Positions 871 through 45,439 of a DNA stretch of 64,000 bases are shown one piece after another. The translations under genes were made by a program, and so were the position numbers. The DNA comes from Raillietiella orientalis (taxonomy: Eukaryota). Position 1 is the first letter of the stretch. Each line of letters begins with the position of its first letter. The stretch lies in assembly GCA_036172245.1 (NCBI GenBank), contig JAYWIR010000009.1, forward strand, positions 5,022,001-5,086,000, read 5' to 3'. The notes under the pieces were generated by a model. That model ran no database searches and was not told the DNA's origin. It was given only the letters and a program-made list of their open reading frames with translations.

Positions 871-1844
871 CCCGCCATCCTACTACCCTTGGATGTATCT
901 ATGCACCTTTGTAGAGAGGACATTCTTATGACCCCACTTGAACAGTTTTCCAGCTGGGTCCACTACATCTCCAAGGGGATGTGTCTTGCTCTGTGCAGTA
1001 GTCGATATTGCACTGTTACTATAAACCTTATTCATCTCATAGATACCTGATTCAACATTTAGTTAATCCTTTTGCGTGCTCCAGGTGCGCTCGTAAAAGA
1101 AGTGGTTAGTTATTAATGGTTCTTGCTCCGTGAAGTTTAATTCACACTTGCAAATCTGGAAGCGGTCGCTAAGCATTGGAATATTGAACGAGACGGCTGT
1201 CGGTCTAAAAGTCTGCTCCGGAATGCGTCCATATTGCAGTAGTTCGCGTCTAGTGATGCGCTGTCACATAGTATGAAAACACGGTGATATCTTTCCTCGG
1301 AGTTTCGGATCTGCAACTCACGGCTCCGAGAAGATCGCATCTGTCAGGTCTGGTAGTGCTTGTGCCGTCGTGCAAATGTGAAGACCTCCATCTTGCATTA
1401 GTCGTTCATCTCCATCCACGGAGAAGGTGTGCAGCCAAGGTGGACCATTCCTATATTATAACGCTTTGACAGATGGATGTTGTTGGGTGGAGTAAGGCAA
1501 TATCGACTGTGAGCAGCTTAGGGAAGAGGCCTTTCGGTCTGCACGAGCACCTACTTCGGCGCCTGGCAAGCGTGATTTTTCCTCCTTTCCGCAGCTGGTG
1601 CGTCCACATCGTTCCTTCAAGGGTTTTCAGCTGTTGTGCTGATTGAGACGACTTCTACGACGTTTTTCACCTTTTACTGCTCTTCCCACAAAGTTTATCT
1701 GTTTACAAGGTATTTTTTCTTTGGGTGGTGGTGGTGACGATTATTCGCCGTCCCTCGGAAGACATTTTCTAGAATCCTACCCAGGGTTCAAGGTTCCCTA
1801 GTAGTCCCTACTAGGACCCAGAGTTCCAGGAAATGTGTTGTGAT

Positions 1845-2270
1845 GACTAATCCGCAGGAGGAAAAATGCTTGAATACATTCGATCTGTTAAATCATGAGA
1901 AGGTGGCGAAGAACTTGATACATCATTTGAACAAGAAGTGATCTATTTATTATAAATGTAAAGATCGAGATGTGTATTTTTATGTGAGGGCGTGTATGCA
2001 GAATGAAGTGGATCTGGTGACGTAGTTTTGTATAAGCGTCCTTACTGTCCGTAGATTTCTTCTGAGTTTGCAAATGGAATGAACATGAATCTATTAACTG
2101 GTCACCTCATTATCTGCAAGCATACTGTCAATTTTAAAGTTCCTGCTGACTAGGCTGCTGATTGAATTCCTGCTGGATCAAAGCAGTTGTTGATTGGAAA
2201 CTTTCTTTTGTTCCGTGTGTATAGAAATTTTTATGCAATGTTCAAAGGATTGGGACATGTAAATTATTAA
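1845..2270 (+). pseudogene. cap: CRESS-DNA virus capsid C-terminal fragment (EVE)
   Basis: The end reads IPAGSKQLLIGNFLLFRVYRNFYAMFKGLGHVNY*, which aligns with the capsid end at 34749 (FRVTRKFYVVFKHLRDVWLY*). It converges on a Rep C-terminus and has internal stops. Confidence 0.6.
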
Positions 2271-2329
2271 ACTGTGTCAATGGCTTTTATTTTCGAATTT
2301 TAATCTATTACATGATTGACTGGTTTGTT

Positions 2330-2606
2330 GTTTTGATCGTTTACGAAGCCGACTGTCCATCGGTCGCTGCTGATTTTTCCGTAGTTGGGGTCGGGGTTGC
2401 TGAAAGACGATGAAGTTGTGTGAGTTGAATACTTTTGTATGTCCTTGATACTTTGTGCAGCATATTATACCATTTTTAACGGTTTCTATGAATTCGTAAT
2501 TTATGATGTCTTTTTGGACGTCTTTTGTGGAGTCTATGATAACTATTTTCTCGCCTTGTACACGTAGGCGGCATCGGTTTTCCTGCAGTTGCTTAGGTAG
2601 ATGGCT
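2330..2606 (-). pseudogene. rep: CRESS-DNA virus Rep SF3 helicase C-terminal fragment (EVE)
   Basis: AIYLSNCRKTDAAY..GEKIVIIDSTKDVQKDIINYEFIETVKNGIICCTKYQG, homologous to the Rep at 30432-30689 (Walker B region and KNG motif). Confidence 0.75.
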
Positions 2607-3398
2607 TCATAATGACGTCATAGTAGTCTGAAAAAACGGCACTGTTAGTCGGTGTGAATATATAGAAGAGTGGTGTTCTCCCCGATGGTTATCGGTCCTT
2701 CTTTCCGAAGTTTTGGTGGTGATCATCATGGTGGACGGCTCCGAAAGCTTATGGTTCTTGATCCTGCTCGATGCAGCAGTCGCTGCTGTTTTCAGGGTTC
2801 CCTTTAGCACGCCCGAGGTGTGCCTTGTGGAATGGAGGTCGCCGTATTTGAGCAAGTGATCGAGGTTCATGAAGTTGTAGAGAGTCTTAAAGCTGTGGAA
2901 TGCCGCAGGATCCAGAATCCTGGGCGAGAATTGCGTAGCTGCTGTGTAGGTGGCACCACTGCTTAATGTTGTGTGGTTCCTCTTTTTCCCAGTGGTTAAC
3001 GGTGAAGCACCTCGAGAAATAAACTGCGTATGGCATTCCGTAAGACTTGTTTTAAGATTACTGAGTATATACAGGCAAGCAAAGGGGCCATCTGGTAATA
3101 GCATTTACCCAGATGACCGTTGATCTAGGCCTTTGAGAAAATGCACTCTATGCGGACATCGGCCTGCTTCAGCTGATAGACGGCTTCCTTATGGCGTAGG
3201 TAACCTAAAGACTTTATTAGATACAAACAAAACACTTCAGTTATTGAAAACACATATATTATTTTATTGCACTATTCCAATTTGGATCAGACAACTTAAG
3301 CAAGATCATAGGTCTGGATATCACATTTCAAGGAGGTGTCTTTTTCGTCTTCCTCTTACTACTCCAAAGTTCTGTTAGCTCCGATGGCTCAGAACTTG

Positions 3399-4570
3399 TT
3401 ACTTTCTTGGGCCCTCTGAAGCTGGGATGGGCATAATGATCGGAGTCTCAATCACCTGTAATTGTATTGCACTTAATTCTGCATCCGTTATAGCATCTAG
3501 TACTTCAGGTGGTGCAGACATCGCTTTCCTTTTATGGGCTTCTTTGCAAAATGCATCCCACACAGGATCATAATCGTCCTTTGATTTGACAGCTGCTTGT
3601 GAGAAATGTGGAAATTTGTCTAACGAACTTCTCGGGTATAAGCTTCTCATGTAAGATCCTAGCCGGCCTAGGCATGCATCAGCTTCATTGTCCATGAAGT
3701 TAATCCTACGTTCACCAGTTAGGTATTTAGCTTGTGTGTGGTAAACAGCTGGGTTCGCTAGTGCTTTCTCATAAGCTGGTTTAAGAACTAAGAGTTCCGA
3801 CACACGTGGACAATACTTTGCATAAACATTTGCCACTAATTTTCTGAACGCCTGAAAACCGACAGTATGCCGGTGAGTGCCTGCAGGCGTTGATCTGAAT
3901 CGCATTTTGGCATCCGTGCTGAAACGCCATTCTGCGTAGGGGAACACTGGGGCACTACCCTGGTATCAAGTATGCCTACTATGCCTGTCAGTTTTAAAAA
4001 GTGGCCTGTAGAAATGTAGTGCTCCATTTGGTGAGCTAGAGAGATTACCCTCTCTATGTTATATGATTCGAAATGCAGCCTTGCTACTTCAAGCGGATAG
4101 CCCGCGCCTTTGACGTCCTTCGTCCGCATACCAATATGGTGCTTACAGACCCACCAGGATGCTTTCGTTGCCAAAAGTAACTCGAAGCAGTTCTTCGTGA
4201 ATACTGGATCAATGTATCGTGCGATTTTGTCCTTGACTTTTTCAGATGGCCCATTGTATTTGGTAACGATATACCAGTGGCCATCTGGTATCCATTCTTC
4301 ATTAACCTTCCTCTAGCATATGGCACCGTAAGAAAAGCATGCATACAGTAAGTTCAGAGTGCAAGGTTGAAAGTCACTTAAAACGTTTTGTGTCGCCAAA
4401 AACCAGTTTGCAGCATTGCTAAACTGGACTCTGTATGATGTTTCTGTTTCTATATATGCTGGGAGCTTCTGAGTAGAGGGCAATGCGGCATCGCTCACAG
4501 TGATGCCCATTTCGACCCCTCCTTCTACCTGCGGGAGGTTCACTATGAAGGGGTCGTCTGGTTCATTCAT
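3399..4570 (-). pseudogene. Near full-length negative-strand RNA virus nucleoprotein EVE, qinvirus (Qinviridae)-like
   Basis: ORFs 4313-4570 and 3836-4174 share a frame separated by one TAG, then a frameshift near 3950 leads into 3399-3947 (~390 aa total). Motifs ATKASWWVCKHHIG, PAGTHRH, YHTQAKYLTG, LGRLG and PHF are recalled as qinvirus segment-2 protein features. A homologous second copy lies at 33665-34085. Confidence 0.6.
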
Positions 4571-5029
4571 TACTGCACAATCGCAGCCTAGGGCAAACTA
4601 GCAAGTGAAAACAATGCAGTCACATCATCATACTTGTAGGAATGTGCACTCATTGTAAACTGAGTCTTTAGCATATCTTTTCCTTACGGGATAAGCTCAA
4701 ACAAGACTAGTGTGCAATTGGATTTACCTAACCTATGGTGTTTCGACGCATCTTTTGGTGAGTTCGCTCCTCGATTCTCCGGACATGAACCCGGAAATAA
4801 ACGAAAATTATATCTTTGTTCGTCGATTTCACGATTGATCAGGCGAGGAGAAGGTCTTCTACATCAATAACCATTCTAGAACGGTGGATGAAGTACTCGA
4901 GTAGAAGTGGCACATACTTATATTTCTTCAGCACTCGTTGATTCCGGGAAAAGGATAAAGCATGAGAGTCTTCACCATGATCGAAAATTTCAGTTCCCGC
5001 GAAATGATGATGATGCTGTTTCAAATCAC

Positions 5030-5600
5030 CCCTTGTCGACATCGCCATATCTTACTCATTTCATACCTTCTGTCTGCTACCGTCAATTCCCAAATTCATC
5101 ATCGCAAATCCTATCAAGCTATTAGCAAAAACCATCAACAGTAACCTCCACCCTCAGTCTATCTCATCAATTGAAATCTTCATCACCCTACTAACCACTA
5201 TCACTCTCATCAATTTCTCAAGACTTACCCCCTACACATTTCCTTTATCCGCCTATCTCTTCCTATCCCTATCCCTAGCCATTCCACTCTGAACCTCTAG
5301 ACAACTTTTTTCCATCTTCAGCAACTCCTCCCACTTCCTAGCTCACCTTACCCCCAAAGGAACCCCAACATCCCTCTCTCTATTCATCTCACTACTAAAA
5401 ACAATAAGACTAATAATCCAACCTATATCCCTGTCATTACGACTAACAGCCAACATTACTACCGGACACATCCTCATCATTATACTTTCAAACAATATCA
5501 CAAACCTTATCTCATCCAACCCCATCATAACCCTAAAAATTACCATGGCCTTCATCCAAGCTTACATTTTTACCACACTACATCACTTTACACGAACAAA
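5030..5600 (+). pseudogene. atp6: NUMT: mitochondrial ATP synthase subunit 6
   Basis: In the invertebrate mt code: NFSSLTPYTF...HFLAHLTPKGTP...LSLRLTANITTGHIL...AFIQAYIFTTL. Confidence 0.9.
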
Positions 5601-5607
5601 TAACCAC

Positions 5608-6068
5608 AATAACAAATCACCAACCCTTCTTCCTCCACCTCCACAGACCCTGACCCATCCTCACCTCTCTCAGTCTTATCCATAACCCTTTCCCTAACAT
5701 GCCCCATACACAACATCTACTCAACCCTTACCCGCAGCATTACAACCACAATCTTAAATAGATTCCTCTGGGGAAAAGACATAAAGCGAGAATCCTCATT
5801 TATTGGTATTCTTCCAATAAAAATAATAAAAACATTTAAATTTGCAATAATCATATTTATTACCTCAGAAATTTTTTTATTCCTTTCCTTTTTTTGGTCA
5901 TTCTTCCACGCTAGATTGAGAGTCAACCCACAATTCAGATTTTTCTGACCTTCGCCCAATCTTGCCCTACGCTACCTCACAGAAGTGCTTCTATTTAATA
6001 CCATTCTCCTATTAAGATCAGGTATCTCACTAACATGAACACATCACTCTCTTTTTTAAAAAAAATCA
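5608..6068 (+). pseudogene. cox3: NUMT: 5' half of cytochrome c oxidase subunit 3 (copy 1)
   Basis: FITSEIFLFLSFFWSFFH...WP...NTILLLSSGISLTWTHHSL, directly downstream of atp6. Confidence 0.9.
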
Positions 6069-6069
6069 T

Positions 6070-6509
6070 TGATCAGAAAAAGTTTCCGTAAGTGGTTCCA
6101 AATTTATCCTCTCCCCGTACAACTTTACATACTCAGACAGACTCGACATTCCACTCAGATTCCTTAATCCAAGCAACGTACTCGTGGTGCGCTTATGGAA
6201 ATCGGTATGATACACAAAACAACCGACATAATAACCTTCACTACCAACAAGCCTCAACTCTTGACGAACAGTAGAAGCACGCTTCGTAAAATGACAATCC
6301 CTAAACCGAATGCGCGCACCAGAACGCAACACCTTCCCAATCCAGGAGAAAGCACGTCCAAAATTGCCACGATCCTTAACACGCCTGCTCATAGAATTCC
6401 GCTCACGATGATTACCACGAGAATGCAATGCACGACGTCTACGACGCTGTTTACGTAAAGAAACATTCCTAAGATCGGCACGATGACGTGTACGTGTTGC
6501 AACAGGCAT
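6070..6509 (-). pseudogene. cap: CRESS-DNA virus capsid N-terminal part (Arg-rich)
   Basis: Basic N-terminus MPVATRTRHRADLRNVSLRKQRRRRRALHSRGNHRERNSMSRRVK, divergent from rep across a stem-loop. Confidence 0.65.
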
Positions 6510-6627
6510 CCTCACACCGCAACCTCTTGTATCCTCATGCATTCCAAAATGAAGGGAACGAAGAGAATACGAACCCCCTGACCCTCACATTCCGCCAATT
6601 TGACACCGACTACGCAAAAACCACTTG

Positions 6628-6663
6628 GAAAGTGCAGAGGGTGACCCTGACCTCGGCACTTTC
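6628..6663. promoter_or_regulatory. Putative degenerate rolling-circle origin stem-loop of the CRESS virus
   Basis: GAAAGTGCaGAGG-gtgaccctga-CCTCgGCACTTTC lies between divergent cap and rep. The minus-strand loop CAGGGTCAC matches CAGTATTAC at 6 of 9 positions. Confidence 0.55.
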
Positions 6664-6707
6664 AAAACCGTATCAAACCAAAAACACCCACACCAAAGAG
6701 TTGCAAC

Positions 6708-8715
6708 ATGCCGTACGCAAAGTGCACGCGGCGGTGCTTCACCCCAATCAACTGGACAACCGCAGAAGAAACACAGGAAAGGTCACTTCGAAAAGGAAAG
6801 CACGCAATGCTCGGAAAAGAAGCAAGCTCAACAGCAACCCCGCATCTCCAGGGATGCTTTCAACAGCAATACCCTCGACGATACCTCAGCTAAAACGGAT
6901 CCGAGGTTTCGCAAGAGTTCGCTCGTCGGAACCGCCGAAGGAAATCCTCAACACAGAAAGACCAACAACCATGCGAAAGAGGCACACCGACAAACGACAA
7001 ACCTCCTACTACACAAGATCAAATAGATCGATTGCAAGCACGAGTGAACACGGTTCATTTCAGATCATCGCATGCGGAGAAGAGGGAAAAAACAGAAAAA
7101 TCGTTCTGCGGAAACGAAGCACAACCATTCGAAAAACAGAAAGCCTTCCACATCGACGGCATAAGACTCCGAAATACGTACTCTCCAAACAATCCAACCA
7201 TCCTGAAAACATTACAACCATGGCAAACTTCTCCCCCTTGAAACCTCTCTACCGGCTCCTGGCAGCCCACGCATGGATCTCCTGCCGCCCAACGAACTTT
7301 GAGTCCTGGCGGCAGGAACCGTTGCATGCCTGCGCAAATCAACAAATGTTTCGCTCTTGGAACTCCGTTGCGCCAACCTCTCCCCGTACCGCAAGGTGGA
7401 TGAGGTCTGGAACAGCCAGGAGAAGTGGACTCGCCTGGCCGTCACGCCCCTCGCCGACGCGCTGTGAGCCCTCAGGGCAAGAGATGACAGCTGCCGACCG
7501 GCGAGGTTCGAGGTCACCTGCACCATCGCAGGAGCAACCCGACCCATAGGCGGCTGGAGGACCTGCGAGCAGGCAGACGCTGCCACGCCTCGCAACATCC
7601 CGAAGGGACTCCTACGGTGGAGCGAACATTTGAGTGTGCCCCCCGAAGAACTTGTGGTCCACTTCTGTGTTCCCCCTTTCTTGGAAGCAGGACGACATCA
7701 TGCTGGTGCGTTGGGGTTTTCACTCCAACCAGCGGACGAACCGTGTTTCCGGGGGAGTGGTCTCCCCGAACTGTAAACGGTGTGGGGACGTGGAAACGCT
7801 CCCGCACCTGCTCTTGGACTGCGGTGCCCTCGAAGGACTGTGGCGGAGGCTGGCCTCAGCTCTTCTGCACCGGAGGGACACCGCAAGGGACTTGATGAGC
7901 CGCTTCTTCACGCCAGGCGGCCTGTCCTTAGGTGCTGTCATCGCAACGGTCTGTTGCACCCGCGCCATCGACAAGGCCCACCGAGAGCTGGAGAAGCTGG
8001 CGATTCGTCGTCAGGACACCGGAATAGCCAGAGTGAACATGGCGGCCGAGTGGGCCCATCTTCCAGAGGACGTTAGGAGCGAGATCACCGGCAACCATAG
8101 CAGGTTCTGAAAGAAAGGAACGGCCAAACCAAAGACCCCTGTCCCCTACACTCCCCATATCTTTATTTCTATTTTTTATACGTGTATTTGTGGTCCCCTC
8201 GTTCCGGACTGTCGGTTTGCCGACCTGCGTGTCGGGGTTCCCCCCCCCTTCGTGTCTTCTGTGTCCTTTGTCCGGGAACTCTGTTCCTGGATAGTTCAGA
8301 AATAAACGCCCCGGAGCACCCGGGTGAGAAACAACCATGGCAAAAAACCCTACATAGATCCCATGCAAAGAGAACCCAGCGAACGAGATATACAGTGGTA
8401 CAACGATTACCAAGGTAACTGGGCAAAAACCACAGTAGCCGAAACTATCAAAAGCCACGCACCGTACTTAACCAATCGCAAAAAGAGAGGCGCCGGCTAC
8501 ACGCGGAAGGGAGAGACACTCATCATGCTGGACCTCCTCACACGCACACCACATCAACTACGGAATTATAGAAAGCCGAAAAAACGGAATGCCGCGATCC
8601 ACTAAACTATCAAGGTCACGTTGAATTGGACCATCCGCCTCGCTTCATCATCTTCCTCAACGTGGACCCCAACCACGAGAAAATGTCAAGAGACCGCTGC
8701 ATCATCCCTCAATCC
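6708..8715 (+). pseudogene. rep: Full-length but degenerate CRESS Rep, split by a LINE insertion (Rep parts 6708-7227 and 8345-8715)
   Basis: Motif I CFTPINW, motif II GKEASSTATPHLQG, then LQPWQ | insertion | RDIQWYNDYQGNWAKTT (Walker A), LIMLD (Walker B), KNG and PPRFIIFLN..MSRDR. Confidence 0.8.
7228..8330 (+). mobile_element. 5'-truncated L1/Tx1-clade LINE with 14-bp target-site duplication
   Basis: C-terminal CCHC finger CKRCGDVETLPHLLLDC, stop at 8110, 3' UTR with AATAAA plus hairpin. ACAACCATGGCAAA is repeated at 7214-7227 and 8331-8344. Confidence 0.9.
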
Positions 8716-9219
8716 ACTCAAGGTCTGTTGGAACCAATGCCACCTAAGGATGGCATTTCACGTACCACTGCGCTAAGCATTTACGCGTTGAAGCAAAACC
8801 ACGCTGCCGAATTCTTGGCTACCTTGAGCATGAAAATCTCGAACCAATTTTTTCCATTCCGTCTTTCTAAACAAGACGCCGGTGAGGATTCTGTTGCACC
8901 TTCTGACTTTAAAACAGCACAATTGTTTCAACATGTTCCTGTCATCCACATCACCCAATTCATCCTTAGCTTTTGCAACATGGAAAAAAGGACAGATTCC
9001 AGTCATGCCCAGGACACATCGCAAACACACGCCTGAACTGCTTTCTGCTTTTGCAAGACACATGGATGCTAAAGGCACCACGAAAAAAAGCAGTTTGTCA
9101 TCAATTTGGGACTGTGGTAAGGGAGTTTCTCAACACAAAAACGCTACTCCTGCAAAACCATGTAGTCAACTATTATGGAGACTTTAGGACGAGTAGGTTG
9201 TGAGCAGCAAGCATACTGA

Positions 9220-9745
9220 TGTTTCCCATCCCATTCACCTTTCACCGCACTCTGCATAAAGGGCAGCCACGCTCCCTACTATCCAGTGCGAGAGTGGTGC
9301 TCTGCATAGAATTCTCCCATGCAGGAATAGAAACGCCGCCTCTTGCCACTCCATTGGAAGAGTGCTACTGTGCCAATATGCTGGGGGCCACTCAGCTTCT
9401 CCAGTTGCATTCCGTGCAGCTCGCCTCAGCGCATGAGTTCTTTCCGCAGCGTCCACTGCCTGCCGAGTTGTCCACACTTTCTTTAGTTTTTTCCTGCCTC
9501 CAATGAGGCAGGACATTTCCCACGATGCTCGTTCGTTTCTGTCTCTGGTGTGTCTGAGGTACATCAGCAAGGGAGCAAGGAGGATGGAGGAAGGCACAGC
9601 AATTTGCGTGGGTTTTTTCCCATACGCTGCAAGGGCTGTCGAGTGCAAGGGCCTCGTCGGAGGCGAAACGAAGCATTTGGGAGAGGCGACAGGCGTCATC
9701 ACGTCCTGCAACCCACCGACGTTCCCGATCGGGCTGCTTCGGAGA
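9220..9745 (-). mobile_element. Degenerate L1/Tx1 ORF2 C-terminal fragment
   Basis: ASWEMSCLIGGRKKLKKVWTTR...WPPAYWHSSTLPMEWQEAAFLFLH matches ORF 53256-54719. Confidence 0.8.
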
Positions 9746-12397
9746 ACATTCCGTTCAGCGCCTCTTAGCGAGTAAAGTGCCTTTCGACCCATCTTGGAAA
9801 TCGTTTCAATGCTCGGTGGTCGTGTTCCTGAATGCTGCGTTTAGTTCTTTCCTCTATCCTCCTTTTGAGATGCACTTTCCCTGCTACCTGCTCTGCGATC
9901 CGAGTGGCTAGCATCCATCGTCCCACCTTCCGAAGACACTGAACGCAGAACGTGCTTGGGATGGTGGCGTATTGCGCCTCGTTCGAGGCGAAGAATTGCG
10001 CTCTTTGGCTCATGCGTTTTCCTCAGTGCGGTCAGATGGTGGGCGACCTTCAAAGCATTCCGTGTTTGCCTGGCCGCTCGCTGGAAACCGTCGCGTTTCC
10101 CCAGGCGCTTCCTTTGCCAGAAATCGGGAAACCGGCTTCCGGATGCCGTCGACCGGACGATCGCGCCACGGAAGCCAGAACGAGCCGTCGCAGCTGCCAA
10201 TGACGTCCGCCTGCCTGCGATTCAAACGAAACTGTGCGATTCCTTGGTTGCTGTGCAACGCACTCAATCCTGCCACCGTGTCCTGGAATGGCACGATTCG
10301 CATTCGAAGGGTTAGCGCGCAGGGGTTTTTCTAGCATGTGTTGATGACAGGGGTATCAGCTGCAAGCTGCTGATGCCTCTGTCGTTTCTTCTGCTGTTCG
10401 ACGACGAAGAAAACGCTCACCTCCGCGGCTCCCGCGTAATTGGAAGTGTGGAACCTCTGATCGGGAGAGGGTACTTGTTCCCGAAGTGAGCGCACGTGGA
10501 CCCCCGTGCCCCAGACTTGCGGATTTGTGTGCTCTCCTTGCATTCGGGTGATCGCCGCGTTTCTGGCGTACACGCAAGTTTAACGCTCCATCCGTGGCTA
10601 CGGATGAGAGGCAGAGGCCCCATCGGAAAAAGAACCCTTGCTTTGGGATCATGAGAACGTCCCAACTCTGCTGCTCACCACTTAGAAAGTAGCGGTGGGA
10701 GTCGTGGGGCGTGTGCCGTGCCTGCAGGTTACCCAAAGGATTTGTTGGCTTCCTGCGAACGTGGCTACAGTAGCGGAATGCTCATCCTGGAATGGTCGGA
10801 TGGGAGGTGGAAATTGCGATGATGCGCGGCCAGGAATGGGCGATGGCGACTTGAAGAAGGCTGCAGAGACGCACGCCGTTTGCTTTCCATCCGTACCTGT
10901 TTCGAATCCGGAAGTATCCTTCGTGTCGTACTTCTTGCTCGTTCAGGGCACATGGTGAGGTGAACGAAGAGGCACGTTTGTTTGTGGTGGCAGTGATCGC
11001 ATGGTGGTGAGCAGGCTGGTGAGCGTTATTTTCCGATGCAATCCTTTCTTCTTGTTTCGTGATTGCTTGCGTTGCGAGTGAGGGCTGTGTACTGCGGGAC
11101 AGTCGTGTTGATGTTTCGATCGCGCTGACGGGTGCTGCGTGGTCGGTTGGAAAGGGTTCCCGGATTCCATGTTGATGCTGCTGGGCAGCTGCACTGTCGC
11201 CGTTGACGAGGAGTACGAGGTCGTGGCATCACAAGTTCCTCACTGCTGGAAGGGATGGCGGCGCATGTGCCACTGTGGGTTGCGGTTGTCCGGAGAACTG
11301 TGCTAAAGCAGGGAGGGCGTGGGATGCTGCGTCTCAAGGACTTGTCCAGCGAGGGTGGCAATCACGGTGTACTTGGTGTCGCTCGTGTCCTCGCAGGAAC
11401 GTTCCATGTTCCGCAGTGGGGTATGCAATTGGGGGAATTTGCCTGAGAAATGATGTAGATGGGTTGCGTCCTACTCTGCAGCAACGAAATGATTGGCATC
11501 GATGTCGTGCTGGCGATTTCCGATCGTTGGGTGTGGTGGGAAGCAGGACTTACGTGAGGGAGGATATCGGTTTTTGATGGTGCTTCCCTTTGTACGGTTG
11601 GTGGGGTTCCTCCATGGGCGCGTGGGGATGGTACGTATTGCGTGTGCCGAATGTTGGTGTGGTGCTGTCGGAAAAGGTTTGGATAGGAATGGTGGCTGGT
11701 TATCGCACTGTGTTGCTGATTTTGGACTTTTTCGTGATTGCGGACTCGGCCTGGTTGTGTACGAGGTCCAATGTTGCACGATGTCCTTTGCGGAGAGGCG
11801 CATGATGGTGGCGAATAGGATTCTTGGTCGATTCGAGTGATGGTGTTGATGAAGAAGTCTTGAGACGTAGTCATGGTTTGGGCAGGTTTTCGGTGTTCAG
11901 CGGAATTTATCATTATCATTATTATTATTAATGGCACGTAACTAGTATTTAATGGCGGAAAACTAATTTCCATTTCGAAAAGGCAAGTCTTCTGCATCAT
12001 CCTCATGGAAGAAATGGTGCTGCGATTGAGAGGTACTCGGAGTTTGGTTTTCAGCTTGTCGATTTTTATTTTATTCTGTAGGCAGCCCAGGTCTCCACCT
12101 TCCTTGGAGTTTCTGATGGTAATGGTAATCCTTGCGACATTCTTCAACGCGATATGGTGACAAATGCATGAAGCAATTCCGTTCCGATCCGGTTTCCTAG
12201 TTTTGGTACTTTACGTTGCCTTTCAGCCAAGAGATCAGTCGAGCATCAGACATCAATGATTACTAGGATCTCGTATTGGTTCAAATTATCATCATGTTGT
12301 TAGCCCAAAGGATTCGGCTTTACTTCACCTGGTTGTTACATGAAATGAAAATGGAAGTCAGTTTCGAATTGACTCATTTTGCAAACAGTTTTTCCAC

Positions 12398-31864: not shown

Positions 31865-31876
31865 AGTATGGAAAAG

Positions 31877-32696: not shown

Positions 32697-32832
32697 CTCC
32701 ATCAGGGATTATCACTATGGATAATAATTATTAAACCGTTAACCTTTATATTCGGTCATATTAATAAGAATCTTAAGTTGGGCCGTGCTAATATCGCATA
32801 TAAGCTCGCACAATTGGCACCTTACTACCTAA

Positions 32833-33660: not shown

Positions 33661-33664
33661 GGAT

Positions 33665-34085: not shown

Positions 34086-34089
34086 TCAG

Positions 34090-34749: not shown

Positions 34750-34829
34750 TGAAAATAAATATGATATAAAAAATGCTTTTATCGATTGACTTTATCATAT
34801 GAGGTGGAGGGTGGTGATAGGGTGGATAT

Positions 34830-36501: not shown

Positions 36502-36559
36502 TCCTGATATACTAAGAATAAAAGGTTATATAGAATATTAAAGTTAAAACATTTTCTTC

Positions 36560-36790
36560 TTAATGTAAGAGCCATTTGAAGGTCAGGGGAACAGTGGGAT
36601 TTTCTTCGAACAGCATCCATCAGGGTTTGAAGGGCGAGGGAGGAGATAGTACCATCGGAACAACAAGGAAGTTTGAAAGCCGACTCAATTAACATGATAC
36701 GAGCTTCTTCAGAAAGGGCCATAACTCCAAGACAGCCATACAGATATTCGGTGGACGAGGCTTGGGTAAGGGGAAAAATGTGTTGCGAAA
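36560..36790 (-). mobile_element. Utopia/NeSL-like RLE non-LTR retrotransposon fragment (post-RT region)
   Basis: LPQASSTEYLYGCLGVMALSEEARIMLIESAFKL. Confidence 0.6.
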
Positions 36791-36804
36791 ATCATTTTTT
36801 CTAA

Positions 36805-37350
36805 TTTCGACCTTTCGGGCATCTACGGAAGAGATGTCCGGATGCAACGTGCTTAACCTGCGGCGAAAAGGGCCACACTAGCGTTGTGTGCCCTAAGAAC
36901 GTCGCTACACCGCCAGAGAACCCGGAAAATAAAAAGGGGGAGAAGGCGGAAGAAAAAAATAAAAATAAACAAGCAGAGGACCAACTACCAGCTAAAAAGG
37001 CAGTCGTACAGCCTAGCACGGAATCGCAAGAAACGATTCCTCAATAGGCAGTCGACGAGGGTGGATGGAAGCTGGTTCCAATCAAAATCAAAACCCCCAA
37101 AAAGAAAACTCGAAAATTCCGAATAGATCCACGAAGCCGAAGGTGAAATCTTCGCCGCGCGATGCTAAGAAGGAATAACGCGTTACGATGGAGCGCGTGC
37201 CGTCTATGGAACTTCAAGCAGCCGCTCAAGGCTGTCAAGAAGGCTGTGAGGCGGCCGGCGGAAGCCAAAGGCCCGGAAACATCCGACTCCGAAGCGGAAG
37301 TCGGAAGCGCTCCCTCCATCGCCCTCCCGAAAAGGAAGCCGGGACGGAAT
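36805..37350 (+). mobile_element. L1/Tx1 ORF1 fragment with zinc knuckle
   Basis: GHLRKRC..CLTCGEKGHTSVVC. KKAVRRPAEAKGPETSDSEAE matches the ORF1 ends at 59221-59661 and 63524-63898. Confidence 0.8.
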
Positions 37351-37359
37351 AATAAGCCA

Positions 37360-38040
37360 CTGAGTGGACAACCTTGCTTAAAACCAGCGTTGATTTGGAC
37401 AGGATCGGAAAGTCATGTTGCAGTGCACATGCGGGTGGTAGATCCATCGTACATATTGATTATGGAGAGGAATTCATCGCCAATCCCAAAGTGTCCTAGT
37501 GAGGAAAGGATAAGGGCGTGAGGGACAGAAGAGAAGGCGTCTTTGAAATCAAGGCAACAGATGCAAAGGTTCTGGTGATGCACCCTAGCGCGTTGCAGTA
37601 GAGAAGAAAGTTCTGTTCTAAAGCACCGTCATAGGGTAAAAAATCTTTTTTGATAGGGATCAAGGAGAATCCAAGAGCGCAGTCTTCTGGCGAGAATTTT
37701 AGAATACATTCTCCAGGGGAGGAATGGGAAGACTTGCCAATGGAGGAGTGGGATTTTGAGGAAGAGATCCCTTTTGGGGTATCGGATTCAGCGGAATGGG
37801 ATTAACAGTGGAGGGGGGTCTACTAATTGCTGGAGGAGACACACTGGAAGGATTGAAGGTTGGAGAAGGATGATGAAACTGATTGGGAACAGTCACCCTT
37901 AGGGACTGGGATACTTAATTTTGCCGTAGAGGCTTCTGGACATTTGAGGTGCTTGGAGAGGACATTTCGTATATCTTTCTTATACTGTCTAGGAGTCAAA
38001 ATAGATATGTACCTTTGCAAATCACAAACCTATTTCGAGA
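37360..38040 (-). mobile_element. Utopia/NeSL-like RT N-terminal fragment
   Basis: YSKILARRL..QK.FLPYDG..LDFKDAFSSVPH..INAGFKQG. Confidence 0.75.
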
Positions 38041-38048
38041 GAAGAGAC

Positions 38049-39539
38049 TTATATTCTTCCCACGAGCTCGCGTGCTTGCTCTGACAACTGACCACACGGA
38101 ATCATTTCTTTCAGGCTTCCGTAACTAATTGGCCGCACTTCACCTGAAAACCTGAAACAGTTTCCAGCTTCCAGGTCTTTGGCAACACTCGCGGATAACG
38201 TGGACTCCTTCTGGAGTGCACTGCCCCCGTTTCCCTGGTTGTGAACAACCGTGGGCGCATTGTCAACAAAGACCTCGCCTTTAAACTCTCTCACCGCAGC
38301 ATTCGCTGCCTTAGCTATCCGATAATAATCTTTAGGAGGGGGGGCCTGTGATGCTATCAATCGCAGCTGCATAAACGTCTGCGTATAAGCATTACGCAAA
38401 ATCTCTGCAGGTCTTCCAGGTCCTCCAACAATCCGATAACTGCCACAAGAACCGGACCCATCATAGCAGATTTCAGCGGGAAGCACCCAAGCTGCGACAG
38501 GCGGCTTAATAGACACTGGAGCAGCTTCCAGGGCCACTTCAGTAGCATACTTAACACGACTACGCAACTCTTCAGCAACCAGATTTCCCCTTCTCGATTC
38601 ATATGCGTCCTTATCAGGTGCATACCAACCCCGACTGCTCAGATTAGAAGACAAACGACTATAACTCTCTTCAACCTCTTGGTCCAAGATCTTGTCAAAT
38701 TCATCCTACTCCCGACGTTGCTTCTGCACCTTCTTTCGAAGATCCTCCTTTCCATGGAGACCTGCCAAAACAAAATTTTCCTTCTTTACCTGGCGCAATT
38801 TAAGTCCTTTGACACGAAAAGAACGAGGGAGCTGGACGAGTTCCATCACATCTTCCATGTGATAATCGGTCTCGACCAGCTCATGAAGTTCTAAGGGTTT
38901 CATCTCTGAATCCTCAAACCAAACTTCGTTTTCCACCGATGCCTGAACCAAAGTGGCGGAAACTCCGTAATTTTTCTCGGCTGACATAGAAGCTAAGTGC
39001 ATCCCAACTATCAACCTGTCTCGGAGGTAATAAACCGCTCCGGAAAACCCAGGTTGGGTTGAACCGCAGTAACCAAGATAGCCAAGGTCATTCTACCCAA
39101 CTATCTTAGCTGAAGAAGCCATGCCACGAACACTAATCATGGCATGAGTCGAATCTCCTGTGACTTTCTCTGACTTAACAGGAAAATCATTAATTTGACC
39201 AGGCATAGCGAAAATAGCAACATCATCTGCAATAATCCTAATGTCCGTAGGTGTAAACCCCTTCCCGGACTCGGTCGCTCTGGTTGCCAATTTGCCTGCA
39301 AATTGGGAACCAGGAATCATTATAACATGTCTTGGAGCGACTAACCACTTCCCAAGCCAAAAACCACAACCAAGGAACCTATTACCAGAATAAAAATAAA
39401 ACTGGCAACTAGGATCCCGTGGAGATCGGACAAAAGCAGAGCCTGGAATAGCACACTCAGGAATAACTAACTGAGCATCCTCAAACCCTGCCACCTCAAT
39501 TTTGTCTCTCTGTTCACGAAATTCTCTAAAATCTCGCAA
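38049..39539 (-). pseudogene. Sobemo-like (Solemoviridae/Sobelivirales) polyprotein EVE: serine protease, VPg and downstream region
   Basis: One frame of ~497 codons broken only by TAGs at 39093 and 38706. Protease motifs: LGCGF..APRHV, DDVAI, GSTQPGFSGAVY, IVGMH. Confidence 0.75.
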
Positions 39540-39639
39540 TCAATTCCAAAGAGTCAAGAATTTCCGGTGACACCGAAGTACTATCGTAGCAACAAACATC
39601 AACGTTGATCCGATAGAACATCCTAAGCCCGCCCACATA

Positions 39640-40095
39640 CCGCCCGTATGTCGGATGTCTCAAAACCAAAGAGGCGTTTCGTAAAGTAGGAAAATTCGTT
39701 AAACGAAGGCGGAAAGTATACATGAGGCTCATTAAGTATAAGCGAAGGCGTGTTAAATATCGAGACGTTGAGCTGGAAGTTAAGTTATTTGAGAAGAACT
39801 GTAGAGCTTACTATGACGTGCAAACACTATTCGAGCATAAGGATGGCGAATTCGGGATTAGTCAACACGTCTCGGATGTTTGGTTACAAGGAGTTTCGTG
39901 GTTCCATTTGGGACGTCATGCAAAGCGCAAATGTGGTGCAATATTGGTCCTTATTTCCAATATGTGAAAGTAAGGTGTGGCCATTGGAGGAAGTATTTCG
40001 GCGTGAAAGCAGTTCGATTCTTCTCGCGAAGTTATGTGAGATATCAGATACGACTTAGGGAGAATGCGACGAGGTACGAGGTTTGGATGTTGGAC
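39640..40095 (+). pseudogene. cap: CRESS capsid N-terminal fragment (EVE)
   Basis: Basic tract RKVGKFVKRRRKVYMRLIKYKRRRVKYR, then SYLRRTV..SIWDV..QYWSLF; abuts a Rep tail. Confidence 0.5.
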
Positions 40096-40100
40096 CAAGT

Positions 40101-40245
40101 CTACTTGACAAGGCTTCTTCGATTCTCCCTTGGATCAGTGGTCCAAGGGAGAATTGACCCATCTTCATCCATGGTCCACTGTGTTTTCTTACGAAATCGT
40201 GGGTTGTCGAGGTCTATAATAACCCAGCGATCTTGTGAGGACAAT
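40101..40245 (-). pseudogene. rep: CRESS Rep extreme C-terminus (EVE)
   Basis: SQDRWVIID..KKTQWTMDEDGSILPW matches STDRWIVH..KKTSWQLSKEGTILPW at 34830-35198. Confidence 0.7.
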
Positions 40246-40674
40246 GGCTGGCTAAGAGCAGCTTGATCTCTTAAAAGATCTGCCTGTGCTGCAGCATGCC
40301 TGTGTGTGCCTGAAGTGAAGAGTGCGTACACTCTGTTGATCATGAAGATTAGCGCAGCATCCTTCCAGGCCTTAGTGTGGTAAATCCACCCTACTGCTGA
40401 TGCTGTTACATTCTTAATCGTGATCCTTGCGTCAGTTGGCTAATACAGCGATAATTTCCTGTCTTCTGAAAGTGCAATATCGGTTCCGGTCGTAAGTCCG
40501 ACTTTTCTATTGCCATCCAGATTTGGCAACATGCAGAAAATCTGTCATAGCTGGTTTCTGCCTCTTGTTCAGCCTGGTCTGCCATAACACTGCTAACTTT
40601 ATACAGCCAATATACTTAGCTTTCAAACTAGGTGTTGTATTTTTCACAATGCGTGTTAACTGTAGGTTTAAGGG

Positions 40675-41445
40675 ATCCCAAGTACCAAGCGTCCCCACAA
40701 CAATTGCATCATTAAGGACCTGAAGGCCTTGGGATTCAAGAAACTTTTGTAATGGACGATATTTATCTTGTTTACTTTCCCTGGCCGATTTGAAAGATTG
40801 AATGCGATTTTCGTGCGGTTAGTCGAGAATTAAGGCATGAGAGGAATCTCGAAGGAAAACATCAGGGCGTAAGGCGGAGTGAGTATCAGGGATGCAACGA
40901 TTGCTGGAGGAGATCGGCCAGAGAGGGAGCAAAGAATCTTTAAATAACTCTAAGATGGCGTTATGCCTAGAGTATATCAAGGTGCCAAGATGAGTAGGAC
41001 AATGAGAAAGAACGTGTGCTAAGGTCTCTTTGGGGTAAGGACATTTCTGGCATTGTTCATTGAATCCTGGTCTTTTTCGGTTGCCATTTAGAATTGACTG
41101 GTTGAGCCGGGCATGATGGATGAATCGCCAATCGGCAAATCGAAGAAAAGCGGCATCGTAAAGAAAACTCATGGATGCTGGGTGACGCATAATGCAATCC
41201 AACGATCGACCTTGGTCGGGTTCCAGAAGTAAGGAAGAGATTTCTTGATCTCTAAGGAGAGAACGAATCGATTTTGCTATTTGTCTTCTCGAAGAGGAGA
41301 ATAAGATTTTAAAGTTTTCCGAGTTATTGCTCGTGAGCCTAAGAACGATTTGATCTTCCACAAAATCCCACGAAACAGGTAAAAATTTAGCAAGAGAGCG
41401 ACAGCGGGACCAAAATATTTTCGGATCGCCACTGTTTATCAAGGG
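40675..41445 (-). mobile_element. Utopia/NeSL-like CCHC finger and restriction-like endonuclease fragment
   Basis: RFADWRFIHHARLN, CQKC..ETLAHVLSHC, RHN, LRPD, ENR, K..KY, VGTLGTWDP. Confidence 0.85.
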
Positions 41446-41714
41446 GAGGGAGGGTGGAACCGTTTGTTAGTCATGTGTGTGCATATAGCTGGAGGGCAAC
41501 CCACCCTTCCTTGCATTTTTATCGCGTTCCGTACTGGGGTTCAGTGGTCAATCGGTTCAGTTTCCATTGTTGAAGTATTTTGCATTGCATAGAATCTGTT
41601 GTTATCAATGTCTTGGATTCTACGCAAGGTAATCCAGGACCGCTGGTAGATTTACCTCCATGTGTCGGGAGGCACTGGGAGCCTCCACGGGATCACCAGC
41701 TTAGGTCGACAAGC

Positions 41715-41965
41715 ACCCATCTGTCTTGGTGGTTTTCCCGGCATTCCCTCTGCTGTCCTTGTGCCAGTAAATGTTTCTATCGTGTGGATCTTTTCGAAGC
41801 AGTTCAAGCAGATCCATTTGCCAGCTGCGTAGGATCGTCATCTTGTCAAAGAGGGTACTCTTTGTGGATATCCTACCACTTTCATTTAACCGCGCTTGCA
41901 GGTGCTCGTCGAGGAAGGCATGGTCTGTTGACTTCAAGTCGCCTTCTGCTTGATCTAAGATGTTG
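41715..41965 (-). pseudogene. rep: CRESS Rep central fragment (Walker A)
   Basis: LRSWQMDLLELLRKDPHDRNIYWHKDSRGNAGKTT. Confidence 0.8.
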
Positions 41966-41969
41966 ACCG

Positions 41970-42438
41970 CGTGTATCACGCCATTGTGCGCATAATGCGT
42001 CCCCACTGTGTTTGCTTCGCGCGAGTTGCACATGAAAGTCCCTCGCGACCAGGTGGGCTGTATCTGCATTTGGTCGTTCCCACCTGTTCTCCTTCAGGTC
42101 TCGGAGAAATGCAGTCGTTCCGGTGACTGGCATGTTTGTGGTAGGGGCGTAGATATTGGTAACCCTGAGGTCGATGTTGTCTGACCATTTTAATTTTGAT
42201 TGCTTAATTCTGCCCTTATCATCAAATCTCGTCAAATCTCAAGCCCAGGGTACGCAACATCTTGGGCTTCAGCAGCAATTCCACTCTTGTGTGGAGAGCC
42301 CCATTCCTCCAAAACATTTCCGACCCAGTAATCCTTTCGATTTCGCGCGCCATCTCTTGGGATACCAGGTGTAACTCCTGGAGGAGCACTACGTCAAAGG
42401 ATTGCAGGGCGGTCGCGATAGCAGGTCTTGCGGCTCTC
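41970..42438 (-). mobile_element. L1/Tx1 APE endonuclease fragment
   Basis: FDVVLLQE..LKWSDNIDLRVTNIYAP..HLVARDF. Confidence 0.8.
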
Positions 42439-42732
42439 GGATAGAGAGCCGCAAGACCTGCTTCACAGTCCAGACGGCTATCTCGAGTTTCTTCATAGAG
42501 CGTTCCATGCTCGTTTCTGTTGAACGTTCTGTCAATTGCGCTACTTGTTGGGCACTGGCCCGGACCTGATCTCCATCTCCTCGCAGTTAATTGCCGTTGA
42601 TGGCTGCCTCGGGTTGTACTTCAGCTCGTTTTCGCGCCTTCGAGTGCCTCCCACTTACTATGAAAGATTCCTATGTCGAGCAGCGGGTTCTGCATGGCTT
42701 CCCTGCACAGGTTCGTTATTTCGAACTTGGGA

Positions 42733-42805
42733 GAGCCAATCAGAGGCGTTTCTGAACGCGCAGACCAATCAGTGCGCTTGAAAGGGGCGCCGAGTTTCCC
42801 GCGCG
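42733..42805 (+). promoter_or_regulatory. Promoter-like cluster: two CCAAT boxes and an E2F-like site
   Basis: AGCCAATCAG (CCAAT at 42736) and GACCAATCAG (42765), 29 bp apart; TTTCCCGC at 42795. Confidence 0.35.
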
Positions 42806-43214
42806 TGAAGTAAAAAAACAAAGAATTTTTTTTTTTCCAGTCTTTTGAGGCACTGAGGCCATCTGTTGCACCTGCAACCGATTGTGGTTTGTTGCCACAG
42901 TTGTGCATATTTGCGACACAAGATTTTTCCACCGGTTCCTCTTACCTTCCCTTCATGTCTACTTTCTGGCTGCCGCCATGGCAGCAAATATGCAGGAGAC
43001 AATTCTCGCCCACAGCAACCAAAGTTGTGTTGGCACACGGTCCATACATGGTGAGGATGTCCACGAGGTCATGGGATCGAAACTACTCGAAAAACCACAA
43101 GCTGTCACAACACACAAAAAAGAGAATTTCGCCTGCTAGCGGTAACTTTTCGAGAGCTCACGGAGGCACGACCGCACTGAAGATCATGAGTCAGACGGAA
43201 GGAAAAACATTTTC

Positions 43215-43420
43215 AGGGATTACATTTTCAACACCCCTCTGCCAAGGGAAAAGTTGGAAGTCTGTAATGGCTTTCAGTTTATCCATGAAGCTTGGAAATT
43301 CTGAGCGGTAGGACAGTGGGTCAAAACCTACAGGTTTCCCTAAATATCTGTACGTTTTGTTGGTTTGTAACGAGTGGACGGTTTCGCCGTACATTAAGTG
43401 CGAAGAGCTTGGGGAGGGAA
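43215..43420 (-). mobile_element. Utopia/NeSL-like RT fragment
   Basis: YRYLGKPVGF...LFPWQR. Confidence 0.65.
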
Positions 43421-43789
43421 GGCGACGTAGTGGAAGGAATCACAAATCACAATATTACATGTTCGTATATATTTTTCATTAGTGGCCCCACTAATGAAGA
43501 ATATGATCCAACACAGCTAGACAGCAATTTCTGACAGACATGTTCCCAGGGAACCCTCAACTCCTGCTTTGAAACACCAAAGATTGCTCGATTGCTGCCA
43601 CTGGGTTCCTCCTATGCAGCTGAAAATTGCAGACAATCCCCATTTTCCAATTCCTTGTAGTGGGAGACACCATAATCTGGCAGTACACTAGGCAAGCAAT
43701 CAACCGAGCGCACCCAAGAGCACTTCCCCATTGCAAACATTGCAGCTGCCTGGAATTTGGAATAGTGGACAGTAAATACAACTGTTTCA

Positions 43790-45439
43790 TTTAGGACAGG
43801 TCATCACCATACTCATGACAGCAAAGACGTTAATTCTCAGTGGATTCGAAAAATAAAAGGCAAGTTGGTTGGCGTCGGAGAAAAGCATTCTGCCAAAATA
43901 GCAATCAAATGGTAATACTCTCTCATATAATATGTTACAAATTCGCATTGTAAGCCTGGCCTTCAGCACACATCGAATGGTCCCACTTGCTGGCATCACC
44001 AGTCAAAATCAAACCTTTATCTTTGCGACAGCAGGCGTCATATAAAATCTCTCCCACGTCAAAAATCGGAGTACCCGCTGTACTATTTGGGAATAATTTT
44101 TGTTGAAAATGCGTATCAACAAAAGTGCCAAGAACCATCCAATCAACGATCAACTGAAATAAGATATCAAAGTGGATCTGGGATATTTCTCTTCATCCGG
44201 ATCATTGGTTATTCTACCTTTTGCGCTGTCACATAGTACTCTTCCACACTTTGTCAATAACCTCTGAAACATACTTTGGGGTGTCAGGATCAGCAATGCA
44301 AGTCTCCATGTCTGGCCATTTATCAAACAGCCCTGAAACCCCTTTCATATTTATTTTTGTGAGAACCTCATCCCAACTATAAGGTCTCAGTGTCTTCCGA
44401 AATTGCATTTTTTTTAGATAAGGTAACAACTTTCTCAATTCTTAAAGTGTTCCTCTCCTAATACTTACACAAGGCTCATCAACTCTTGTGAAGATAGCCT
44501 CTAAAAGACTTTCATTCGATTTCCCAGTCCTTTTAACTACCGAATTAGTGTAATTTCAATCATACATTCCTCTAATGTACTCCTGCAAACGTTAATTTCT
44601 AAGATCTCGATCGCCCCAGTATGCATCTTCCGATGGAAGAAAAATAAAAATTTCTGATACATAAAGGCGACAGTTTTTTTACAACTAATATTCCTAATGT
44701 TATATCTTTCAATAATCTTTTTAACTCTATCTAGTGTTTCAAATTCATATTGATTCCTAATGATTCACCATAATTCGCTTGATTAGTGAATTCATCAACG
44801 CTTGATCAATAATTTGCGTCATTTGTAATCTATGTATCATAACATACTGCAAGGTTTTTTTGACCTTTCGCCGATTGTGCAGGAAATTGCTTTTACTCAT
44901 TTCTGTGTAGTGGAAGTCATCGTGATAACCAACTATAAATTTATAATCTCCATTGGTACACGCGGAAGGTACAACACAGATCACATCTTTACATTTCAAA
45001 TTAACTTCCCTTTCTTTACAGACGTAGACATTAAGACACGCTTGACTCTTACTATAATTGTCATGTACCACAATGTCTACCTGCTCATTTGGGTGTCCCA
45101 CAATAACCCGGTAACTGCGTAAAGAGTACCACGACAAACTCCAACTAAAGGAGTAAATATTCTCTTGATCTCATGTCAAAGTCGCATAACTCCATTATCG
45201 TTTTCACCAGCTTTATCGTAGTCATAAACGCACATGCCTCCAACAAAACTACCTAATAATTTAATGATGTTGGGAATACTTGGTACTGCATTAAATACAT
45301 CGTCTCGATTACGCCAATATAACCCACAAGCATCCACCAAAATGCTAGAGGAGGCCAACCAAACTGGCATACCTGCTGAAACAAAAAAATCCTCCTCGAT
45401 ACATGCCGCATCATATGTATCTTCATATACCATTTGTAA
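43790..45439 (-). pseudogene. Flavi-like (pesti-like/large-genome flavivirus) polyprotein EVE including RdRp motifs
   Basis: AIFTRVDEP, PYSWDEVLTKINMKGVSGLFD, GTPIFDVG and LTGDASKWDHSM (motif A). Disrupted by stops and frameshifts and cut at 45440 by a LINE. Confidence 0.6.

Follow-up and report, generated by a model that had tools for sequence, protein, structure and literature searches.

Loci in which pieces of viruses lie among pieces of transposable elements (TEs) are already known from the PIWI-interacting RNA (piRNA) clusters of mosquitoes. In Aedes aegypti, the sections cited here of one study (PMC7161354; Aguiar et al. 2020) describe a flamenco-like locus, EVE cluster 38 of ~143 kb, in which hybrids of TEs and endogenous viral elements (EVEs) lie on one coding strand. 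The same sections report a single antisense transcript from this locus, phased primary piRNAs, their loading onto PIWI5/6 and a putative promoter site (PMC7161354). In other arthropods, EVE-dense loci are usually piRNA sources, according to the part of that work cited here (10.1101/396382), and EVEs of qinvirus type are on record in the cited portions of two further reports (PMC6540820, PMC6955108). The stretch considered here comprises 64,000 nucleotides of contig JAYWIR010000009.1 of Raillietiella orientalis (positions 5,022,001 to 5,086,000; hereafter the window, in whose own numbering all coordinates are given), and between bases 880 and 45439 it holds a mosaic of viral, retrotransposon and mitochondrial fragments. 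With a probability of about 0.5, this mosaic may be read as a long-lived accumulation zone for viral and TE fragments that is laid out like a uni-strand, flamenco-like piRNA cluster.

The mosaic lies in an arthropod-type nuclear genome, beside an array of high-GC long interspersed nuclear elements (LINEs) of the apurinic-endonuclease (APE) type. Both high-GC ends of the window (bases 1-880 and 45440-64000, 59-64% GC) consist of diverged copies of one retrotransposon family lacking long terminal repeats (non-LTR), which are 65-77% identical at the nucleotide level and present in both orientations, and the GC content of the interior (880-45439) ranges from 34 to 55%. The limits of the mosaic, which the original prediction had placed at 880 and 45439, coincide with the inner borders of high-GC LINE copies carrying both APE and reverse transcriptase (RT) domains, as seen from nucleotide matches (329-881 and 45440-47984) and Pfam domains, and can be retained. 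Within these limits 26 pieces were annotated in 45 kb, with no intact gene among them, which amounts to the dense array of nested, decayed TE and EVE fragments by which uni-strand clusters are recognized. Of the viral pieces with support, 11 of 12 code on the minus strand (two-sided binomial p=0.006 if the pieces are independent), and they represent four kinds, namely qin-like, phlebovirus-type, partiti-like and Rep-like, where about eight virus groups had been announced.

These assignments rest on several searches of differing reach. Pfam was scanned with stop-to-stop open reading frames (ORFs) of at least 70 aa (n=262), leaving out those of 38-69 aa (n=216), and 33 chosen ORFs were rescanned at E<=5. 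For self-comparison, all ORFs of at least 50 aa were compared with the window by tblastn, followed by a looser search with five ORFs. The full HMMER search against 1.84 billion proteins was made with one minus-strand frame (31880-34123, stops written as X), which takes in three ORFs.

Five RNA-virus pieces from three groups are supported, and all of them code on the minus strand as had been claimed; the claimed number, ten, is not reached. Three of the five are qinvirus-like and were located with a hidden Markov model (HMM) profile built from 47 relatives, and in the window this profile matches at three sites, each on the minus strand. The piece at 3402-4597, a nearly full-length nucleoprotein or putative capsid, consists of three ORFs in two frames (HMM E=3e-50, 1.9e-19 and 3.9e-8) that jointly span profile positions 3-338 of 366, and its identity to the relatives by blastx is 30-43%. 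A second nucleoprotein fragment, at 33653-34123, covers profile positions 159-272 (HMM E=8.3e-22; 35% identity by blastx), and the third, an N-terminal piece at 40296-40544, covers positions 3-34 (HMM E=1.4e-5) and also matches the relative P0094 by blastx (E=4.5e-6 across 78 aa). The relatives include the entry “Putative capsid [Linepithema humile qinvirus-like virus 1]” and a protein of Wuhan insect virus 15, as well as products predicted for ants and Bemisia tabaci on contigs of chromosome scale. Of the 87 proteins returned by the HMMER frame search, one, the ant protein P0084 (E=1.6e-4), falls on 33653-34123; a search of the PDB by sequence with the qin-like piece gave no match. A short internal duplication is also seen at 33653-34123, where two profile stretches overlap at positions 221-231 and the repeated peptide is visible.

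The fourth RNA-virus piece (29877-30230, minus) is an internal part of a nucleoprotein of the phlebovirus/tenuivirus type, which covers positions 34-127 of 224 in the Pfam profile Tenui_N (E=2.1e-17) with a score of 63.9 bits against a curated cut-off of 25, and which matches 12 nucleoprotein chains in the PDB, the best being 4j4w_A (8.8e-10), with 4csf and 3lyf also among them. The fifth (31880-32608, minus) is a partitivirus-like capsid fragment preserved as an open ORF of 243 aa, to which 86 of the 87 HMMER hits belong, the best of them, P0002, being 72% identical across 237 residues (E=1.3e-108). The relatives that were looked up are proteins of ~300 aa standing alone on contigs of 1.1-1.4 kb (1.1-1.2 kb for the contigs of the best hit), one further hit is a chromosome product of Bemisia tabaci, and none of the relatives has a Pfam family. 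The assignment to partiti-like viruses comes from a predicted structure of P0002, modelled with AF2 from a 50-row alignment (pLDDT 87.6), which gave 26 matches at E<=0.001 in BFVD, down to 2.8e-9, and wherever these are named, they are coat or capsid proteins of partitiviruses or of related double-stranded RNA (dsRNA) viruses. In the PDB the only match below 0.001 was 7ncr_A, the capsid of Pepper cryptic virus 1 (E=1e-4), and the TM-scores of the fold matches are modest, at 0.44-0.58. On this modelled fold, the proteins P0002-P0083 would seem to represent a small capsid, or a satellite-like segment, of arthropod partiti-like viruses that has yet to be described, and the presence of a relative of 31880-32608 on short contigs of public runs hints at a living relative. 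With ~300 aa, P0002-P0083 fall below the 330-500 aa of most capsids that were matched.

The remaining seven pieces counted as viral form one family of Rep-like, putative superfamily 3 (SF3) helicases, six of which code on the minus strand and the seventh on the plus strand. Fragment 1 (2283-2608, minus) extends from Walker B into the C-terminal part and matches the other pieces by tblastn at E 7e-13 to 8e-12, and fragment 2 (8354-8772), the sole plus-strand member, contains several frameshifts and matches at E 3e-5 to 4e-9. Fragment 3 (30234-30960, minus) runs from the Walker A motif GNTGKTT to the C-terminus and shares 78% amino acid identity with fragment 5 (34833-35528, minus), the longest, which was likewise traced by tblastn to the other pieces and has a frameshift across its Walker A region. 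Fragment 4 (31260-31523, minus) matches fragment 5 by tblastn at E=3.5e-27, fragment 6 (40137-40238, minus), a C-terminal tail only, matches it at E=6e-6, and fragment 7 (41725-41832, minus), from the Walker A region, matches fragment 3 at E=3.7e-10. The mutual amino acid identity of the pieces is 32-78%, and they are therefore not recent copies of one insertion.

In the alignments the family displays Walker A (GNTGKTT), a hydrophobic-D Walker B, an hhhhAN motif C and a DRW tail, in an order and with a spacing that we take to be the layout of a nanovirus-type Rep. It may be called a helicase of the small-DNA-virus SF3 type, probably the Rep of a circular Rep-encoding single-stranded DNA (CRESS) virus. 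Compared with the Rep of CRESS-DNA viruses of the nanovirus/circovirus type, it appears alike in Walker A, Walker B, motif C and the DRW tail, and it differs in that no significant Rep match was obtained and that the frames read upstream of fragments 3 and 5 hold no convincing HUH motifs. The match to PF00910 in Pfam is weak (E=0.084), and the nearest named Atlas clusters of fragment 5, Parvo_NS1 (0.89) and PF00910/Cressdnaviricota (0.87), both stay under the 0.9 line. The nearest Atlas clusters are all viral SF3 helicases, and since the top one is that of parvovirus NS1, another small-DNA-virus SF3 helicase is possible. The claim that six of seven CRESS Rep fragments lie on the minus strand thus stands in count and orientation, as determined by tblastn, and is less secure in the name CRESS, given the Pfam and Atlas scores. 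As to the HUH endonuclease itself, a candidate pair upstream of fragments 3 and 5 (YCHK and GHLKG) was rejected, its two parts lying ~83 codons apart and in different frames; the usual spacing of HUH motifs is shorter.

The stop codon of Rep-like fragment 3 is followed after 3 nt by the internal nucleoprotein part at 29877-30230, Rep-like fragment 7 is separated by 12 nt from a LINE APE piece (41845-42620), and at other junctions the fragments are 40 nt or 57 nt apart or have overlapping ORFs, so that abutment with little or no spacer, as first described, is confirmed for several junctions. Such direct fusions imply that neighbours may have arrived together and may share an orientation for that reason. 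Between the plus-strand Rep-like fragment 2 and the LINE piece at 7489-8206, which is also oriented plus, there are 147 nt, and here too the virus and the neighbouring TE share orientation. Decay is unequal among the pieces, the capsid ORF having stayed open, with 72% identity to its best hit, and other frames carrying several frameshifts. This unequal decay, together with the three qin-like and seven diverged Rep-like pieces and the diverged copies of mitochondrial DNA described below, points to many events over time.

The retrotransposon pieces within the mosaic belong in part to the same high-GC family that flanks it. To this family are assigned a 3' part at 7489-8206 (plus), which matches the C-terminal ORFs of the copies at 45-60 kb by tblastn with E values down to 1.7e-23; a fragment at 9238-9840 (minus; tblastn E 2e-27 to 53259-53639, with a nucleotide match of 9239-9664 to 53213-53656); a 3' fragment at 23564-24334 (minus; tblastn E down to 2e-21, with a nucleotide match of 23944-24219 to 45819-46098); and a 136-nt piece of the 5' region at 37214-37349 (plus), which matches 59606-59471 at 73.5% and is inverted relative to a minus-oriented LINE copy. 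The APE endonuclease part at 41845-42620 (minus) matches a LINE ORF of 1018 aa (tblastn E=8e-25). At about 37350-37628 (minus) lies a reverse transcriptase fragment of a non-LTR element, for which Pfam gives RVT_1 at E=4.8e-5 over 37416-37628, under the curated cut-off. At 40510-41466 (minus) there is the 3' tail of an R2-superfamily element, with a zinc finger (zf-RVT, E=0.008) and a restriction-like endonuclease (RLE), which matches three R2 retrotransposon proteins in the PDB over the C-terminal 140 residues of the latter (E 2.1e-5 to 9.3e-5). Its layout agrees with that of the Utopia elements, which, according to the portion of the report cited here (PMC4640811), have a C-terminal zinc finger and RLE. 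Utopia elements owe their name to their U2 snRNA flanks. For U2 snRNA, Rfam gave no match at the gathering score in the whole window and none at E<=1 in 28000-45600. Where four Utopia fragments had been counted, this one RLE tail and the RT piece at about 37350-37628 were found, with no U2 flank by Rfam. The statement that LINE pieces occur in both orientations agrees with the nucleotide and tblastn matches. Outside the mosaic, 45.4-64 kb is filled by at least six LINE copies or parts of copies, four on the minus and two on the plus strand. One of the copies (60543-63596, minus) retains an uninterrupted frame of 1018 aa with Exo_endo_phos and RVT_1 domains, and the sequence suggests that the high-GC LINE family may have been recently active.

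Two nuclear insertions of mitochondrial DNA (NUMTs), absent from the original prediction, together account for ~7 kb of the claimed archive. Read with the invertebrate mitochondrial code (table 5), NUMT-1 (about 5110-6056, plus) holds ATP6 and the N-terminal part of COX3 (Pfam ATP-synt_A 5e-22, COX3 1.2e-28), and NUMT-2 (about 15760-21963, plus) holds COX3 and ND3 on the plus strand, ND5 and ND4 on the minus strand, cytb on the plus strand and ND1 on the minus strand, with Pfam matches to COX3 (8.5e-55), Oxidored_q4 (2.6e-7) and Cytochrome_B (5e-51), to Proton_antipo_M on four ORFs and to NADHdh on three. The gene order and strands of NUMT-2 are presumably those of the ancestral arthropod arrangement and not of a vertebrate. 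In NUMT-2, ND5, ND4 and ND1 are each broken into 3-5 ORFs under table 5, which marks it as nuclear DNA that has decayed, as opposed to the genome of a live organelle. Taken together, the mitochondrial genes stand in mitochondrial order, have broken frames and are embedded in nuclear repeats, LINE pieces flanking the NUMTs on both sides by tblastn. The two insertions overlap over 286 nt of COX3 (5779-6064 against 15758-16043) at 83.6% identity, which argues either for two separate insertions that differ in age or for one ancient duplication, and against a single insertion that was split later. The plus strand of NUMT-2 has an extreme excess of C over G, with a GC skew of -0.50 to -0.71 at 34-39% GC.

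In addition to the assigned pieces, the mosaic contains four chains of minus-strand ORFs that are unlikely to be open by chance. Chain L (32836-33708) has three ORFs in two frames, the middle one of which is open in 0.035% of shuffles and gave no hits in the HMMER search of 1.84 billion proteins and nothing in Pfam. Chain O (35801-36791), in three frames, is a possible second phenuivirus-like nucleoprotein that matches the motif region of 29877-30230 (BLASTP E=0.008) and presumably resembles the phlebovirus nucleoprotein in its motifs, and for which nothing was found in Pfam, the PDB (two ORFs) or IMG/VR. Frame P (38052-39539) has 496 codons with two in-frame stops and, by eye, an H/D/GxSG pattern like that of a serine protease; Peptidase_S39 (PF02122) was matched at E=0.17, an AF2 prediction without an alignment was unusable (pLDDT 33), and nothing was hit in the PDB, in IMG/VR, in the JGI metagenomes or in the word search of 5.8 billion proteins. 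The ORF pair T (44760-45505), of 137 and 109 aa and poor in C, is open in 0 and 0.05% of shuffles and had no match in Pfam, the PDB or IMG/VR. The homology searches made here supported the qin-like, phlebovirus-type and partiti-like pieces and left these four chains without a significant match. On the plus strand, an ORF of 275 aa (33922-34746) was open in 0 of 20000 shuffles, the other two frames having 22 and 12 stops, and is thus not a chance ORF; it had no match in the PDB, Pfam or IMG/VR, and its best Atlas score, 0.79, is at noise level. This ORF and 44760-45505 have a similarly C-poor coding sense (12-15% C, 30-33% T), and the two might come from one source inserted in opposite orientations.

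Elsewhere in the mosaic, two long open frames of A/C-rich low complexity, at 6473-7546 (plus, 358 aa) and 10359-12210 (minus, 282 aa), have no Pfam match. The first of these remained open in 0.005% of shuffles and was dropped as a gene, having no Pfam homolog and lying on a T-poor strand (16% T), on which long open frames are likelier. The only tandem repeat in bases 1-46000 is a 63-nt array at 13519-13581, with 2.1 perfect copies of a 30-nt unit, and Rfam and ARAGORN found no tRNA or rRNA in the window.

The model under consideration may be outlined as follows. Short pieces of abundant viral messages, for nucleoprotein, capsid and Rep, would have arrived over a long time, and template switching by the reverse transcriptase of a retrotransposon is the likeliest route, by which TE-virus hybrid cDNAs would integrate; mitochondrial DNA would have landed twice in the same zone, and the pieces would have decayed without selection for coding. 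If the locus is transcribed from its plus strand, it would yield antisense piRNAs against these viruses and elements, and by analogy with the Aedes locus, the production of piRNAs from it is plausible and may be somewhat more probable than not. A stronger version, in which the zone would be an active recorder, proposes that a resident non-LTR reverse transcriptase switches templates onto abundant viral messages and inserts them, joined in sense to 3' pieces of its own, in a uni-strand piRNA cluster that serves as a heritable antisense library against negative-strand, dsRNA and single-stranded DNA (ssDNA) viruses; this more ambitious proposal we regard as doubtful.

Several observations have to be set against a piRNA-cluster interpretation, beginning with the orientation itself. 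The bias survives a binomial check when pieces are counted singly and as independent, and it loses significance when the co-oriented blocks, ~7 in number, are counted instead, about five being minus and two plus. Among ORFs of at least 100 aa, 27 are minus and 11 plus in 29.8-45.4 kb, and four are minus and none plus in 0.9-5.1 kb. In 6-29.8 kb, which is half of the claimed span, there are 23 plus against 20 minus in one part and nine against nine in the other, and this central region, free of strand asymmetry, is mostly NUMT, LINE and unassigned sequence. The archive is for this reason better described as one dense block at 2.3-4.6 kb, a second at 29.9-45.5 kb and one Rep-like piece on the plus strand; in the two blocks most TE pieces, like nearly all viral pieces that can be recognized, code on the minus strand. 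Even inside the larger block, the 275-aa ORF is a clear exception to the minus bias and the LINE piece at 37214-37349 is oriented plus. Of the LINE-type pieces inside the span (APE-family, RT and RLE), five of seven are minus, and the four-to-two ratio in the flanking array indicates that a mild excess of minus orientation is not special to viruses. Since fused fragments partly arrived together, strand bias alone is no proof of a piRNA cluster. The viral cargo is itself affected, as the virus label of the four unmatched ORF chains is a guess for want of a significant match, and as no match of the Rep-like family to a known Rep was found in the PDB (by sequence and profile), in IMG/VR (by sequence and alignment) or in the 5.8-billion-protein word search (162 candidates with fragment 5, none of them scored), these searches being of limited sensitivity for short, diverged pieces. 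Finally, in the cited sections on the Aedes locus the authors themselves argue that its EVE piRNAs may be a by-product without direct function (PMC7161354).

Much of this would also be expected under the main rival reading, in which the mosaic would be a neutral junkyard of repeat-rich heterochromatin with no small-RNA role. The common orientation would then stem from a few chimeric cDNAs or concatemers, each with several co-linear fragments, that a retrotransposon reverse transcriptase had copied off sense-strand messages, and from subsequent local rearrangement. Gaps of 3-57 nt or overlapping ORFs between unrelated fragments, the shared orientation of viruses and adjacent TEs, including the plus-strand Rep-like fragment 2 beside a plus-strand LINE, and both the five-to-two block count and the symmetry of 6-29.8 kb are what such an origin would leave behind, and so is the restriction of the cargo to abundant messages, for nucleoprotein, capsid and Rep, with no polymerase piece recognized in the Pfam ORF scans. 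An origin from a handful of chimeric molecules is weakened by the uneven decay and by the three qin-like and seven diverged Rep-like pieces, which point to many events, and the tendency of EVE-dense arthropod loci to be piRNA sources, in the cited part of that work (10.1101/396382), also counts against a locus with no such role. The neutral origin is accordingly held to be possible and deserving of serious attention, at somewhat below an even chance. That the small RNAs come from both strands, or are small interfering RNAs, so that the orientation of fragments would be irrelevant and the locus would be a dual-strand or otherwise non-flamenco source, appears decidedly unlikely: the plus-oriented Rep-like fragment 2, two LINE pieces and the 275-aa ORF, as well as the LINE copies of both orientations flanking the block, would fit such a source, and the strongly one-sided dense blocks would not. 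A misjoined assembly of virus, mitochondrial and repeat reads, in which the mosaic would not be one molecule, is highly improbable, for although there are abrupt changes of GC content within the window, nothing points to it directly; the in-frame stops and frameshifts in the qin-like nucleoprotein, Rep-like, NUMT-2 and P frames are unlike reads of live viruses or organelles, internal gene fragments are joined at single-base resolution in a window with no N (N count 0), and diverged copies of one LINE family are present within the block as well as beyond it.

Provided that the source species can be sampled, the 45-kb stretch offers a compact test case for whether co-oriented, EVE-rich loci outside mosquitoes act as piRNA sources, and for a second question, whether viral sequence can be carried in by non-LTR elements instead of LTR ones. 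It also preserves traces of earlier infections with viruses of the qin-like, phenui-like and partiti-like kinds and, probably, with a lineage of small DNA viruses. The active recorder, if true, would represent, for another arthropod lineage, a LINE-driven equivalent of the LTR-driven capture described in mosquitoes.

Compared with the scattered EVEs of arthropods, such as the qinvirus-like ones of ants and basal hexapods and those from partitivirus capsids, the locus contains the same gene classes in endogenized form, and it differs in concentrating at least 12 viral pieces of four kinds in ~18 kb, co-oriented. With the flamenco uni-strand piRNA cluster of Drosophila it has in common nested, decayed transposon fragments that lie mostly in one orientation; non-retroviral EVEs are absent from flamenco according to the cited sections (PMC7161354), and its transcription and piRNA output are demonstrated, whereas the present locus is described from sequence alone. 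The closest likeness is to the flamenco-like locus of Aedes. Both loci, as far as the cited sections describe the mosquito one, are repeat-rich and enriched for non-functional TE-virus hybrid fragments from several virus families on one coding strand, here for the most part. A transcript and piRNAs are reported for the mosquito locus in those sections, whereas the layout described here is known from the DNA only; the TE pieces next to the viral ones belong here to non-LTR elements of the APE and RLE types, the cargo is qin-like, phenui-like and partiti-like with a repeated Rep-like helicase of ssDNA-virus type, and two NUMTs are embedded among the fragments. The numbers of the original prediction (eight groups, ten RNA-virus fragments, four Utopia fragments) are higher than those verified, and the architecture that it described fits the Aedes flamenco-like EVE cluster, as portrayed in the cited sections (PMC7161354).

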